Below, in pieces: positions 243 through 5,090 of a DNA stretch of 5,682 nucleotides. The stretch's first letter is position 1, and each line of letters starts with the position of its first letter. The position numbers and the translations under genes are program-made. Source of the stretch: Escherichia coli (GTDB lineage Bacteria; Pseudomonadota; Gammaproteobacteria; Enterobacterales; Enterobacteriaceae); the NCBI RefSeq assembly GCF_003334785.1, contig NZ_QOWV01000042.1; one strand, written 5' to 3'. The notes beneath the pieces were generated by a model. The model was not told the origin of the DNA, searched no databases, and saw nothing but the letters and a program-made list of their open reading frames with translations.

Positions 243-1427
243 TTACTCTGTTATTGATGAAAGGATTGAGCTCATCTTCTGAATAGAAGATAACTTTCCT
301 TTCATTAGAAGTCTAATTTTAGCCATTATCTCAGGATCTGTCGCAGATTCTAGCTTTTTAGATAGACCAGCAATTTCTGCCTTTTCTCTTTTTATTCTGT
401 TTTCTAGGAGTGCTCGGTGTTCACTGTTGCTTGTGTTACTTCCAGCTCCATACCCATTCCCTGTTGAAATGTTGAGGTTTTCGGTGTTTATTTTAAGATC
501 GAATGCGTTGTTTATATTTAAGATTAGTTCTTTTGTGTTTATTACATCAAAAAATTGAACGCTTGAGTTATTTAGCATTTCCTCTCTTAATATAGCGTGA
601 ACGCCTTTGTTTTCTCTATTTTCTTTATCTCTACCAACTTTAAATATGAAGTCATCTTTTGCATCATTAGTGATTAGGAAAACGTTTTTCGCACCTGTTG
701 ATGCGGCATGCTCTAGAGTTTCTTTCCATATGTAGAAATCACCATAAGCTCTTTGATAAGTAATGCCGTCATAAGAGAATATATTGTCTGGCTTTCCTAC
801 CTTGTCTGCGTCACAGAATCCAGGGGGCGTTTTTAATTCATACCTTGATTTACATTCAGCATCTAATCCATTAATGTATTCTTGGTCCTTTTTTACGCCT
901 ATTTTTCCAGAGAATATGTTGTCAATCCATTCTCTATGTATGTCTTTTGTATTTAACTCATCAATTGATTCATTGAGTTTTCCATACATATCCTCTAGTC
1001 CTGAGTTTAATAAATCAATGGATTTTTTTATTAACTCAGATACTTGTCTGTTTAGCCCTTCGTAATGCCTTGCTTTGGAGTTGTTGCATTTTTCTAATAG
1101 TTTTGATGAATAAGATAATAAATCAACAACAGGAGATGTTGTTGTTGATATCAAGTGTTTCTGATCGTCGATAACCCCTAATCTTCTTCTCTGATACTCC
1201 AACGCAGTAAAATAAGGGAGATATATATTTTCTCTTATCTGTTCTATTGATTTCTTTATCGCAGATATTGTTTCCTGGTTGTTTCTATATAGGTCTAATA
1301 TGACATTGGTGTCAAAAACAAATAATGTATCATCTGCCCTGTATATATCAGGATTGTCCTTTATGTTGCCTGTATAAAATCCTTTAAACATATCCCTCAT
1401 CGACATAAAAAAGCCCCTATTATTCAT
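243..1427 (-). CDS. PIN-like (VapC-type) putative nuclease with a large internal insertion and a C-terminal coiled-coil tail
   Basis: Long minus-strand ORF (track 243..1493, stop TAA at 245-243). Contains FDTNVILDL (first PIN acidic motif), a conserved Glu in TALEYQ about 38 residues later, and LITNDAKDDF (the T-x-D-x-D-F motif typical of VapC/PIN) about 215 residues after the first Asp, implying an inserted domain. The track's first codon at 1493-1491 is TTG, not ATG. In-frame ATGs at 1472, 1427 and 1406 are alternatives; 1406 has a GGGG SD-like run 7 nt upstream. A perfect TTGACA on the minus strand at 1469-1464 could be a -35 element. The gene is strongly AT-rich compared with the plasmid backbone. 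Confidence 0.7.
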   Translation of the reverse strand: MNNRGFFMSMRDMFKGFYTGNIKDNPDIYRADDTLFVFDTNVILDLYRNNQETISAIKKSIEQIRENIYLPYFTALEYQRRRLGVIDDQKHLISTTTSPVVDLLSYSSKLLEKCNNSKARHYEGLNRQVSELIKKSIDLLNSGLEDMYGKLNESIDELNTKDIHREWIDNIFSGKIGVKKDQEYINGLDAECKSRYELKTPPGFCDADKVGKPDNIFSYDGITYQRAYGDFYIWKETLEHAASTGAKNVFLITNDAKDDFIFKVGRDKENRENKGVHAILREEMLNNSSVQFFDVINTKELILNINNAFDLKINTENLNISTGNGYGAGSNTSNSEHRALLENRIKREKAEIAGLSKKLESATDPEIMAKIRLLMKGKLSSIQKMSSILSSITE

Positions 1428-1501
1428 TTCTGTTTTGTTCTTTTCGTCAGTTGCTGACTCTTGTGTCAACATCAAAATCAATCGATCATGCAAATGATCT
1501 C

Positions 1502-1530
1502 TTGAGATTCCTTTTTTCTACGCGTAATCT
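1502..1530 (+). promoter_or_regulatory. RNA II (replication primer) promoter
   Basis: -35 TTGAGA at 1502-1507, 17-bp spacer, -10 TAATCT at 1525-1530. This matches the ColE1/pMB1 RNA II promoter arrangement. Confidence 0.8.
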
Positions 1531-1542
1531 TTCTTCCTGTAA

Positions 1543-1682: not shown

Positions 1683-2049
1683 GAACTCTCGATACATCTC
1701 TCGCACATCCTGTTTACCAGTGGCCGTTGCCAATGGCGATTAGTCGTGTCTTTTCGGGTTGGACTCAAGACGATAGTTACCGGATAAGGCGCAGCGGTCG
1801 GACTGAACGGGGGGTTCGTGCATACAGTCCAGCTTGGAGCGAACTGCCTACCCGGAACTGAGTGTCAGGCGTGGAATGAGAAACCGCGGCCATAACAGCG
1901 GAATGACACCGGTAAACCGAAAGGCAGGAACAGGAGAGCGCACGAGGGAGCCACCAGGGGGAAACGCCTGGTATCTTTATAGTCCTGTCGGGTTTCGCCA
2001 CCTCTGACTTGAGCGTCGATTTTTGTGATGCTCGTCAGGGGGGCGGAGC

Positions 2050-2701: not shown

Positions 2702-3058
2702 ATGGGGGTAATGATACCGATGAAACGCGAGAGGATGCTCACCATACGGGTTACTGATGATGAACATGCCCGGTTACTGGAACGCTGTGAGGGTAAACAA
2801 CTGGCGGTATGGATGCGGCGGGTCTGCCTGGGTGAGCCGGTTGCCCGTTCCGGGAAGCTGCCGACACTGGCACCGCCGTTACTGCGCCAGCTGGCTGCCA
2901 TCGGGAATAACCTGAATCAGACAGCGAGGAAGGTGAACAGCGGGCAGTGGTCTTCCGGCGACCGGGTTCAGGTGGTGGCCGCACTGATGGCCATCGAGAG
3001 AGAGTTGCGCAGCTTACGGCAGGTCGTCAGGGGACAGGGAGCGCGGGATGATAGTTAA
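2702..3058 (+). CDS. mbeC: Mobilization accessory protein MbeC (MobC family, ribbon-helix-helix)
   Basis: Translation ...MLTIRVTDDEHARLLERCEGKQLAVWMRRVCLGEPVARSGKLPTLAPPLLRQLAAIGNNLNQTARKVNSGQWS... matches the ColE1-family MbeC fold. The 5' part is colinear with the mob remnant retained in pBR322. Start is uncertain among ATGs at 2702, 2711, 2720 and 2735; 2702 has an AAGGGGGG run about 10 nt upstream. The stop overlaps the mbeA start. Confidence 0.8.
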   Translation: MGVMIPMKRERMLTIRVTDDEHARLLERCEGKQLAVWMRRVCLGEPVARSGKLPTLAPPLLRQLAAIGNNLNQTARKVNSGQWSSGDRVQVVAALMAIERELRSLRQVVRGQGARDDS

Positions 3059-3424
3059 GTTTCATGCCAGGGGGAAAGGTGGTGGCAGTGGTCCGGTTGA
3101 TTACCTTCTGGGAAGGGAGCGTAACCGGGAAGGTGCAACGGTACTGCAGGGTAACCCGGAAGAAGTCCGGGAACTCATCGATGCCACGCCATTTGCGAAG
3201 AAATATACGTCCGGTGTTCTGTCGTTCGCGGAGAAGGAACTGCCGCCGGGAGGACGTGAAAAAGTTATGGCGAGCTTTGAGCGTGTACTGATGCCCGGTC
3301 TTGAAAAAAATCAGTACAGCATCCTGTGGGTGGAGCACCAGGACAAGGGACGGCTTGAGCTGAATTTTGTCATTCCGAACATGGAGCTACAGAGCGGAAA
3401 ACGCCTCCAGCCGTACTACGACCG

Positions 3425-3476
3425 GGCAGACAGGCCGAGAATTGATGCCTGGCAGACAGGCCGAGAATTGATGCCT
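3425..3476. repeat. Exact 26-bp tandem duplication inside mbeA
   Basis: Two perfect adjacent copies of ggcagacaggccgagaattgatgcct, followed by a further partial copy ggcagac. 26 is not a multiple of 3, so the duplication shifts the frame. Confidence 0.9.
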
Positions 3477-3761
3477 GGCAGACGCTGGTTAATCACCATT
3501 ACGGGCTGCATGACCCCAACGCCCCGGAGAACCGCCGGATACTGACTCTCTCTGATAACCTGCCGGAAACGAAACAGGCGCTTGCAGAGAGCGTCACACG
3601 CGGGATAGACGCTCTTTATCATGTCGGGGAGATAAAAGGCCGTCAGGATGTGATTCAGGCGCTCACAGAGGCAGGGCTTGAAGTGGTCAGGGTGACGCGA
3701 AGCAGTATCAGCATTGCAGACCCGAACGGTGGGAAGAATATCAGGCTGAAAGGAGCATTTT

Positions 3762-4879: not shown

Positions 4880-5090
4880 GAAAGTATGAAAAAAATCCGT
4901 TTCAGCAGTCTCTGGCTGGAAATTCCTGCGTGATTCACATGGCTGCATAGCTATGCATGTGGTTAAAATTTACCGGGTGCGATCGCGGCAGTTTTTCGGG
5001 TGGTTTGTTGCCATTTTTACCTGTCTGCTGCCGTGATCGCACCGAACGCGTTTCAGTGGTGCGTACAATGGGATGTTATGGTAAATGGCT
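4880..5090. other. cer-like XerCD multimer-resolution site with upstream accessory sequences
   Basis: Core ggtgcgtacaa-tgggatg-ttatggtaaat at 5058-5086 resembles the ColE1 cer XerC arm, central region and XerD arm. Upstream sequence gcggcagtttttcgggtggtttgttgccatttttacctgtctgctgccgtgatcgc and the palindrome tgcatagctatgca resemble the cer accessory and ArgR-box region. Confidence 0.7.

Follow-up and report, generated by a model that had tools for sequence, protein, structure and literature searches.

A ColE1-type replicon abuts a PIN_8 operon

The stretch of DNA analyzed here (the window, 5,682 nt) is almost identical to plasmid RCS83_pIII of E. coli ECOR10 and is a ColE1-type mobilizable plasmid. 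An antisense RNA I with three stem-loops overlaps the 5′ end of the primer transcript, RNA II; the primer promoter lies at the RNA I 3′ end and carries the hexamers conserved in the family; and a gene for the Rop/Rom modulator is found downstream of the origin. The origin region itself resembled those of ColE1-like plasmids in a sequence similarity search. Positions 1400 to 1540 are the seam between two modules of this plasmid, the replicon to the right of about 1500 and the cargo to the left (Table 1).

On the replicon side, RNA I matched Rfam family RF00106 with 76.5 bits (E = 2.6e-13; gathering score, 47), and its three-stem-loop fold had a z score of −5.75. RNA I runs in the same direction as the cargo and ends 137 nt upstream of the PIN_8 ATG, an arrangement overlooked in an earlier note on this DNA. 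The RNA II hexamers were compared by aligning the window with four other ColE1 plasmids and by a pattern search that returned ten loci. The +1 position was placed by alignment to GCAAAC/GTAAAC, the established RNA II start of pMB1-type plasmids. The position of the RNA II promoter fits the Rfam match, since RNA II begins where RNA I ends on the opposite strand, and the −35 element is where the earlier note had put it.

The cargo is an operon that reads away from the origin, its first gene tightly coupled to a second. It lies directly beside the RNA II promoter and is transcribed divergently from RNA II, a geometry that the earlier note described correctly. The product of the first gene matched the PIN_8 profile over most of its length (E = 1.4e-41; model positions 1 to 218 of 227), and residues D61, T62, N63, and E99, which include the acidic DTN motif, were invariant in an alignment with four homologues. 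The protein thus belongs to PIN_8 and is a predicted nuclease. The second gene encodes a protein of 25-aa LNRYLDDEI repeats, of which locus L001 has an uninterrupted 346-aa version; a downstream gene at a 13-nt gap also follows the PIN_8 homologues in relatives at 56 to 93% identity. The repeat protein belongs to no Pfam family. Among PADLOC defense models, the PIN protein matched none and the repeat protein gave weak hits only (E = 4e-4 and 5e-3), which were discounted because they look compositional. For both cargo proteins, searches of PADLOC and NCBIfam added no credible family to Pfam PIN_8.

Table 1. Features at and around the junction of replicon and cargo in the window
Feature	Position	Strand	Remarks
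Second operon gene, 5′ part	1-229	minus	ATG 229; Shine-Dalgarno AAGGAG; 13 nt past the PIN stop
PIN_8 (PIN-like nuclease, predicted) gene	243-1406	minus	387 aa; ATG 1406; stop included; PF18476
Shine-Dalgarno AGGGG	1418-1414	minus	7 nt before ATG 1406
Cargo-side leader/spacer	1407-1499	minus	about 93 nt; non-coding; AT-rich; belongs to the cargo module
Candidate ACGAAA-17-AATAAT	1419-1447	minus	PWM 6.39 here, 9.61 in L025; −10 conserved
TTGACA hexamer	1469-1464	minus	present; chance-level; not conserved
RNA II −35 TTGAGA	1502-1507	plus	invariant in five-plasmid alignment and ten pattern-search loci; PWM 9.03
RNA II −10 TAATCT	1525-1530	plus	17-bp spacer after −35; invariant across ColE1 plasmids compared
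RNA II +1	about 1539	plus	placed by alignment to the pMB1-type start; abuts RNA I 3′ end
Candidate TTTACA-17-TAGAAA	1515-1543	minus	overlaps RNA II promoter; PWM 9.26, similar to both real promoters
RNA I antisense copy-number control RNA	1646→1543	minus	Rfam RF00106 match 1645-1543
RNA I intrinsic terminator	1544-1575	minus	ACCACC/GGUGGU stem, A:U-extended, then U6 and CGUUU
RNA I promoter −10 TACACT	1658-1653	minus	GGCTA(C/A)ACT conserved in five plasmids
RNA I promoter −35 TTGAAG	1682-1677	minus	TCTTGAAGT conserved in five plasmids
Rop family protein	2669-2478	minus	63-aa ORF; annotated as such a CDS in the near-identical record

The PIN_8 gene starts at ATG 1406

The reading frame of the PIN_8 gene is open back to TTG 1493, and the PGAP annotation starts the gene at ATG 1472. 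Several lines of evidence showed that the true start is ATG 1406. The computed duplex with the 3′ end of 16S rRNA was worth −5.6 kcal/mol for ATG 1406 and +0.3 kcal/mol for ATG 1472, which has no Shine-Dalgarno sequence before it. The Shine-Dalgarno position reads AGAGG in two relatives with the same junction, L024 and L025, and GGGAG in a more distant one, L026 (69% protein identity), so that it is purine-rich in four diverged alleles. Relatives at 64 to 74% identity begin MSM(K/R)...FKGFY, most of 150 distant representatives start at ORF residue 32, and, more broadly, relatives at 56 to 76% identity and most distant homologues begin at ORF residues 30 to 32. DNA similarity to L026 and to a further homologue, L013, likewise commences at ATG 1406.

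If the annotated start (ATG 1472, or TTG 1493) were correct, the protein would carry an N-terminal extension of 22 to 29 residues, the TTGACA hexamer would be codons 2 and 3, and the promoter would have to lie wholly within the RNA II promoter/RNA I region. The frame is indeed open from 1493 here and in two relatives that differ by 7 to 12% in protein sequence (gene calls of 409 and 416 aa), and PGAP picked ATG 1472 in three records. The supposed extension did not behave like coding sequence, however: its substitutions were spread 6/7/8 over the three codon positions, without codon periodicity, and it was 31% diverged at the protein level versus 12% for the body of the protein (P0152). Together with the ribosome-binding site and the N termini of the homologues, these data make the annotated start very improbable. 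The earlier note had placed the gene start a few tens of base pairs from the RNA II −35 element; the true distance, measured from ATG 1406, is 96 bp.

The module boundary lies 2 bp from the RNA II −35 element

The segment between ATG 1406 and the replicon diverges with the cargo. The replicon of L024 is 100% identical to the window from position 1500 rightwards; its leader is 83.9% and its coding sequence 88.4% identical. This places the recombination joint at 1499/1500, 2 bp from the RNA II −35 element. The leader was found only at this junction, and all instances carry the same junction; a search for it in another context returned none, and the more distant homologues share no upstream similarity. 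Leader identity in the relatives was 84 to 89% versus 76 to 82% at third codon positions. That the leader is slightly better kept than third codon positions hints at some function within it.

Other signals in and beside the leader were considered. The leader was 65% A+T (measured over 1407 to 1490), and its fold was unstructured (z score, 0.01). The path across it is C-poor (17 C versus 30 G in 133 nt) and not rut-like, and no terminator-like site was returned on the minus strand from 1540 to 1406 by a scan that also missed the RNA I terminator. A plus-strand hairpin, GTCAGTTGCTGAC, at 1446 to 1458 was flagged as terminator-like and rejected: it has only 5 bp, has no gene to terminate, and is lost in L024 and L025. 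An imperfect inverted repeat, TCAATCGATCAT/ATGATCTCTTGA, at 1478 to 1505 was considered as an operator over the RNA II −35 element; L024 and L025 retain only eroded arms, and the repeat is probably due to chance. The GATC (Dam) sites at 1484 to 1487 and 1496 to 1499 were set aside as not conserved, with one left in L025 and none in L024.

No promoter in the leader rises above background

Promoters were sought with a PWM scan, whose hexamer frequencies approximate those of published compilations, so that scores were used for relative statements only, and with a consensus scan. The consensus scan found 6 sites in the whole window versus 6.2 expected and missed both genuine promoters, and it therefore had no power; it returned no minus-strand promoter in the leader. 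In the PWM scan, the two genuine promoters ranked just 10th and 17th in the window (tenth for RNA II; the RNA I promoter at 1653 to 1682 scored 8.55). The best minus-strand sigma-70 site in the approximately 93-nt leader scored 7.19, a value reached by 953 of 2,000 dinucleotide shuffles and by 45% of same-sized windows within the PIN gene. Thus, no opposite-strand promoter within about 100 bp of the RNA II promoter exceeded background, and the back-to-back pair of divergent promoters suggested in the earlier note was not borne out. The PWM is crude, as the ranks of the real promoters illustrate, and a weak real promoter in the leader may have escaped it.

The earlier note drew attention to a perfect TTGACA on the minus strand and to its want of a −10 partner, and both observations were confirmed. 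The best partners are GAAAAG at an 18-nt spacing and CGAAAA at a 17-nt spacing, neither of them usable. TTGACA occurs 3 times in the window versus 3.78 ± 1.8 expected (at least 3 in 156 of 200 shuffles), and its position reads TTGGCA in L024 and L025, whose PIN proteins are 93% and 88% identical to the one here. The hexamer is most likely a chance occurrence rather than a working −35 element, and, being at chance level and unconserved, it is no evidence for a cargo promoter.

The operon could nevertheless have its own weak sigma-70 promoter in the leader, with TTGACA (TTGGCA in the relatives) as the −35 element and GAAAAG as the −10 element across the 18-nt spacer. Transcription would then start near 1433, and the mRNA leader, about 27 nt long, would contain the Shine-Dalgarno sequence; the promoter would stand back-to-back with the RNA II promoter about 105 bp away. 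Such a promoter would account for a leader that diverges with the cargo and not with the replicon, as a regulatory region of its own would, and that is AT-rich and slightly more conserved than third codon positions. In three alleles, the spacing between the −35-like hexamer (6/6 matches here, 5/6 in the relatives) and the ATG is plausible, and homologues elsewhere have recognizable promoters of their own. However, GAAAAG has the A at −11 but no T at −7, matches at 3 of 6 positions, and becomes GAAAAC in L024, and neither the pair (equalled in 48% of shuffles), the consensus scanner, nor the chance-level frequency of TTGACA sets the site apart. A weak promoter in the leader is, on this evidence, rather unlikely. 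The other leader candidate, ACGAAA-17-AATAAT, was rejected as the cargo promoter: it lies too near the ATG, and its start would fall downstream of the conserved Shine-Dalgarno sequence.

Candidate sites over the primer promoter are not specific to this cargo

The proposal of the earlier note can be put in a strong form. The cargo promoter would then be a site lying over the RNA II promoter, either TTTACA-17-TAGAAA or a bidirectional −10 element, AAGATT, and mutually exclusive polymerase binding would couple nuclease expression to replication initiation; in a variant, it would be negative supercoiling from divergent transcription that acts on the primer promoter. The score of TTTACA-17-TAGAAA, close to those of the real promoters, speaks for this idea, as does its presence in three cargo alleles (the window, L024, and L025), the homologous position scoring 4.7 to 5.0 in several other ColE1 plasmids; CAGAAA is the usual ColE1 allele of TAGAAA. 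Moreover, the cargo and this replicon variant occurred together in every instance found. The same pair is nevertheless present in a Citrobacter plasmid that lacks this cargo and absent from L026, where TCTTAA is found, and TAGAAA is without the near-essential T at −7.

The reciprocal −10 element was assessed against known bidirectional promoters of bacteria, in which divergent starts are 7 to 25 bp apart and share a near-symmetrical −10 element (PMC10268837). Symmetry of −11A and −7T underlies these promoters, which are reportedly unusually common on plasmids (PMC10268837). Like them, the RNA II −10 element retains an A at −11 and a T at −7 on its complement, AAGATT (1531→1526), and the minus strand within the RNA II promoter holds a second −35/−10-like pair. 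Unlike them, the better candidate implies predicted starts about 31 bp apart, beyond the bidirectional range. The underlying sequence, GCGTAATCT, is invariant in every ColE1 plasmid examined, whatever lies upstream; the symmetry is therefore common to the family, not an adaptation to the cargo, and uninformative about this cargo. Genes in both orientations are also common beside the RNA II promoter. Taken together, the data make a coupling promoter over the primer promoter improbable.

Cargo transcripts may enter from the replicon side

Conservation of the Shine-Dalgarno sequence means that the cargo mRNA must start upstream of 1418. Since no site in the leader rises above chance, we infer that the replicon side is where most cargo transcripts come in. 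Polymerases not stopped by the RNA I terminator would cross the primer promoter in the antisense direction and continue directly into the PIN_8 operon, and the weak TTTACA-17-TAGAAA site over the primer promoter may add transcripts. Cargo transcription would then physically overlap the primer promoter as a consequence of ordinary ColE1 architecture; we found no evidence in this overlap for an evolved coupling device. By elimination, the earlier note had fair grounds to suggest that the primer-promoter region is probably overlapped or crossed by cargo transcription.

Among the observations that count against entry from the replicon side is the RNA I terminator, a GC-containing hairpin (−20.5 kcal/mol; z score, −5.29) followed directly by a U tract, UUUUUUCGUUU, with equivalents in two other ColE1 plasmids; the consensus scan missed it because A:U and G:U extension of the stem uses up the U tract. 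Its hairpin and U6 look efficient, which argues against read-through, and a literature search gave no usable value for measured read-through at the RNA I terminator. Another lies in the homologues: the leader of L026 is longer and contains a good TTGATT-17-TATAAG site, and an extended −10 element precedes the gene in L013, so that the gene family normally brings its own promoter. We put entry of cargo transcripts from the replicon side at slightly less than an even chance. The explanation as a whole, in which the region is a module seam with a chance TTGACA and transcripts that enter from the replicon, we hold to be an even call.

RNA I and the PIN_8 operon are co-oriented in four alleles with 100, 93, 88, and 69% protein identity. 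A bolder reading takes this order as the product of selection rather than shared ancestry: the operon would have no promoter of its own, and its expression would rely on terminator read-through, which extends RNA I at its 3′ end, and/or on a site in competition with the primer promoter. If so, nuclease dose would be tied to the copy-number circuit, tracking RNA I synthesis and trading off with primer initiation. We consider this quite doubtful.

On the ordinary reading, that of a module seam, the value of these results is mainly corrective. In the public annotation, the PIN-like gene begins 66 nt too far upstream and hence seems to touch the primer promoter, and the "perfect −35" TTGACA is unfit as promoter evidence. 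The results also locate a ColE1 cargo exchange point precisely, 2 bp upstream of the RNA II −35 element; any gene inserted there and facing away from the origin sits directly downstream of the RNA I terminator. If most cargo mRNA did come from RNA I read-through, small plasmids would have in it a simple and previously unremarked means of copy-number-proportional expression of accessory genes, a speculative proposal.

Comparison with other ColE1 plasmids and PIN_8 loci

The control region shares with that of ColE1/pMB1 the Rfam RNA I match, the Rop gene, the RNA II −35 and −10 elements and their spacing, and the RNA I promoter; the promoter features of both RNAs are conserved with thousands of ColE1-like plasmids. 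In pBR322-type replicons, RNA I is about 104 to 108 nt long and ends at the RNA II start (PMC3478263), and RNA I here does likewise. The RNA I/II loops differ from those of other ColE1/pMB1 replicons and form a distinct variant, with matches at or above 99% confined to the three PIN-cargo plasmids and the next closest at about 92%. Compared with other ColE1 plasmids, there is also an extra segment of 11 to 12 bp just upstream of the −35 element, and one extra base separates −10 from +1.

Divergent cargo beside the RNA II promoter is ordinary and common among the ColE1 plasmids sampled. Of 11 distinct other plasmids, 5 had a divergent and 4 a co-directional gene as the first one annotated upstream of the RNA II promoter; in 2, no such gene was present or annotated. 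Plasmids with divergent cargo include Salmonella p151-7k, ColJs and its relatives, and a 4,251-bp Citrobacter plasmid. As in the window, the cargo of these plasmids begins about 10 to 20 bp upstream of the −35 element, and the first gene faces away from the origin with its start codon 80 to 400 bp from −35; the two are about 95 bp apart in p151-7k, nearly the same distance as found here. Their cargo genes are unrelated to the PIN_8 cargo, and p151-7k carries in its leader an AGGAG ribosome-binding site and a more obvious AT-rich promoter-like sequence than the leader here. In colicin-type plasmids, by contrast, the lysis gene reads towards RNA II.

PIN_8 genes elsewhere are found in defense-rich islands and on small plasmids, with homologues on those of Klebsiella, Rahnella, Psychrobacter, and Proteus, and a Cronobacter homologue adjoins a nucleotidyltransferase and 4TM effector gene pair. 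The gene described here and those of its relatives at 56 to 93% identity differ from other PIN_8 loci in preceding, by the same 13-nt gap, a gene for a repeat protein that belongs to no Pfam family.

Plasmid identity and backbone

The window, 5682 bases long, is a mobilisable plasmid of the ColE1 type. Apart from the final 61 bases it matches RCS83_pIII of E. coli ECOR10 (NZ_LT985292.1) at 99.9-100%, and RNA I folds into the expected three hairpins. The backbone is common to more than 5000 plasmid records, in which the stretch similar to the window typically spans 1488-1496 to 5069-5090; this leaves everything left of about 1490, and round to about 5087, as the cargo segment. Backbone similarity to most other plasmids ends at 5086-5090, right after window 5058-5086 (GGTGCGTACAA-TGGGATG-TTATGGTAAAT), a candidate dimer-resolution site that resembles ColE1 cer in its XerC/XerD core.

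Features of the window
Feature	Position	Strand	Details
Second cargo gene	ATG 229		13 nt past PIN_8 stop; AAGGAG site upstream
PIN_8 gene	1406-243	minus	387 aa
TTGACA hexamer	1469-1464	minus	
RNA II -35	1502-1507	plus	TTGAGA
RNA II -10	1525-1530	plus	TAATCT, 17 bp past -35
Candidate TTTACA-17-TAGAAA	1543-1515	minus	within RNA II promoter
RNA I	1645-1543	minus	Rfam, 76.5 bits, E 2.6e-13
RNA I promoter	1682-1677, 1658-1653		TTGAAG, TACACT; same direction as PIN_8 operon
Rop gene	2669-2478		
mobC, mbeA, mbeB, mbeD		plus	

The mbeA relaxase gene contains a perfect 26-bp tandem duplication (3425-3483; 2.3 copies, 100% match) that leads to a frameshift and a truncated 165-aa ORF (3048-3545). Since the ECOR10 record annotates the same truncated ORF, mobilisation may have been lost in this plasmid. 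In several public records a 27-46-aa "replication initiation protein" is called within the RNA II transcript (198-281 in the near-identical ECOR10 record L001, and equivalents; window ~1740-1823, minus strand). ColE1 replication requires no plasmid-encoded initiator protein, so these are probably spurious calls.

The second cargo gene (window 5125-5621 plus 1-229; L001 3559-4599) encodes a 25-residue repeat protein of about eleven units, LNRYLDDEIxSLKTVSFGDDHEL, with a DNA period of 75 bp (91% matches). The protein is uninterrupted in the ECOR10 record (346 aa) and belongs to no Pfam family; NCBIfam and PADLOC matches were weak and probably compositional. A gene also lies 13 nt past the PIN gene in relatives at 69% and 56-64% protein identity, wherever the contig extends that far. 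No related plasmid or contig retrieved contains the final 61 bases (5622-5682), the last 85 (5598-5682) are 72% identical to the start of the repeat gene (61-145, N-terminal part), and circularising the window puts the repeat gene stop two codons past the join. This pattern suggests that the repeat region at the window ends is rearranged or misassembled.

Start codon of the PIN_8 gene

No stop codon interrupts the PIN_8 frame from TTG 1493 onwards, and PGAP starts the gene at ATG 1472, so that TTGACA would be codons 2-3. The evidence favours ATG 1406 instead. A Shine-Dalgarno (SD) sequence, AGGGG, lies 7 nt upstream of ATG 1406 (-5.6 kcal/mol), while none was found before ATG 1472 (+0.3 kcal/mol), and the SD position is purine rich in four of four diverged alleles (AGGGG, AGAGG, AGAGG, and GGGAG). 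Relatives at 64-74% identity start MSM(K/R)..FKGFY, aligned with ORF residue 30; most of 150 distant representatives start at residue 32, and the Pfam PIN_8 domain starts at residue 57. At the DNA level, the relatives at 74% and 69% resemble the window from ATG 1406 onwards. The putative N-terminal extension evolves faster than the protein body, and its substitutions lack codon periodicity (6/7/8 over the three positions). The SD, homologue N termini, and DNA similarity thus put the gene 96 bp from the RNA II -35 element, not the few tens of base pairs proposed in the earlier note. Three public records start the gene 66 nt too early (409 rather than 387 aa), and gene callers over-extend it likewise in two metagenomic relatives (409 and 416 aa).

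The cargo-replicon joint

The leader (1407-1499) is part of the cargo, not of the replicon. A metagenomic relative, L024 (1-250), is 100% identical to the window from 1500 rightwards, and left of that point identity is 83.9% in the leader and 88.4% in the coding sequence. This switch at 1499/1500 implies a recombination joint 2 bp from the RNA II -35 element, which would mark the point where cargo alleles swap against an identical replicon. The leader was found in no other context, being unique to the PIN_8 junction in every collection searched. It is 65% A+T, is unstructured as RNA (z 0.01), and is conserved slightly above third codon positions (84-89% versus 76-82%).

Compared with other ColE1 plasmids, window 1488-1499 has 11-12 extra bases (ATGCAAATGATC) between a conserved AGATCAAAGGATC-like block and the -35 element; these may be a small duplication made at the cargo joint. 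In E. coli M15 plasmid C, GGTTCGAATCCTACCCTCTCCGCCA lies ~60-100 bp upstream of the RNA II -35 element, at the cargo joint, and looks like a candidate tRNA gene 3′ end (T arm, acceptor stem, CCA).

Possible origins of cargo transcripts

The RNA II -35 element had been placed correctly: neither hexamer of the promoter varies in alignments with other ColE1 plasmids or in ten pattern-search loci. RNA II would start near 1539, adjoining the RNA I 3′ end. The minus-strand TTGACA is likewise present and, as had been noted, has no good -10 partner (GAAAAG or CGAAAA at best), but it is no more than chance would give. The hexamer occurs 3 times in the window against 3.78 expected, TTGGCA replaces it in two diverged relatives with the same junction, and we conclude that it is most likely a chance occurrence.

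Because the SD is conserved, PIN_8 mRNA must start upstream of 1418. Three sources were considered: a leader promoter, RNA I read-through, and a minus-strand site within the RNA II promoter. A weak promoter in the leader is given a fairly low probability, below that of replicon-side entry. The top promoter-like score of this 94-nt interval (approximate position-weight scan) was reached by 48% of dinucleotide shuffles and by 45% of equal-sized windows within the PIN gene. Pairing TTGACA/TTGGCA with GAAAAG leaves position -7 without T and gives a chance-level score. In ACGAAA-17-AATAAT the -10 is conserved, but transcripts from it would begin downstream of the SD. The highest score of the whole window, TTGACA-18-TATATA (10.38), lies at 1286-1315 on the minus strand, within PIN_8 coding sequence; intragenic promoter-like sites are frequent in AT-rich acquired DNA.

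We tentatively favour, at somewhat less than even probability, entry of cargo transcripts from the replicon side, by RNA I read-through and perhaps also from TTTACA-17-TAGAAA. The RNA I terminator (a -20.5 kcal/mol hairpin followed by U6) lies 137 nt before ATG 1406, and the minus strand showed no other terminator-like site between the RNA I end and that ATG. The intervening RNA is C poor (17 C versus 30 G), and the order RNA I to PIN_8 recurs in alleles whose proteins are 93%, 88%, and 69% identical. TTTACA-17-TAGAAA scores 9.26, like the real promoters, and several other plasmids score 4.7-5.0 there; it has no T at -7, occurs also in a Citrobacter plasmid without PIN_8 cargo, and is absent from the 69% relative. 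Small plasmids of the Rep3 type carry the PIN_8 relatives at 56-64% identity, and one relative adjoins an ABC-transporter gene, with a promoter-like region of its own. Expression of the cargo as an extension of RNA I survives as a candidate reading.

The 69%-identical PIN_8 gene is on another ColE1-type contig (L026 3367-3674; L027 361-668), where it immediately follows RNA I in the same orientation. There 206 nt separate the end of RNA I from the ATG, and the longer leader includes a good TTGATT-17-TATAAG site.

Possible coupling to replication and comparison with other ColE1 plasmids

Any transcript that enters from the replicon side has to traverse or overlap the primer promoter, which makes physical interference plausible. 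Reciprocal -10 symmetry underlies bidirectional promoters (PMC10268837). The RNA II -10 element has this symmetry, which is invariant in all ColE1 plasmids examined irrespective of upstream content; both gene orientations are common beside the promoter, and none of the features examined is both cargo specific and conserved. There is therefore no sequence support for an evolved coupling device between cargo and replication, though such a device may exist.

A metagenome contig (QZMB01000834.1, 9222 bp) looks like two related ColE1 plasmids joined as a heterodimer or chimera; the first has PIN_8 cargo and the second a different ~2.2-kb insert at the equivalent place.

Eleven further distinct ColE1 plasmids were sampled for the gene annotated first upstream of their RNA II promoter: it is divergent in five, co-directional in four, and absent or unannotated in two. 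The divergent start codons lie ~80 bp (a Citrobacter plasmid), ~95 bp (p151-7k), ~200 bp (an E. coli 5219-bp plasmid and ColJs), and ~400 bp (a Salmonella plasmid) from the -35 element. A cargo gene divergent from the RNA II promoter is not an unusual arrangement, and the cargo/replicon junction seen here is ordinary for a known plasmid type.
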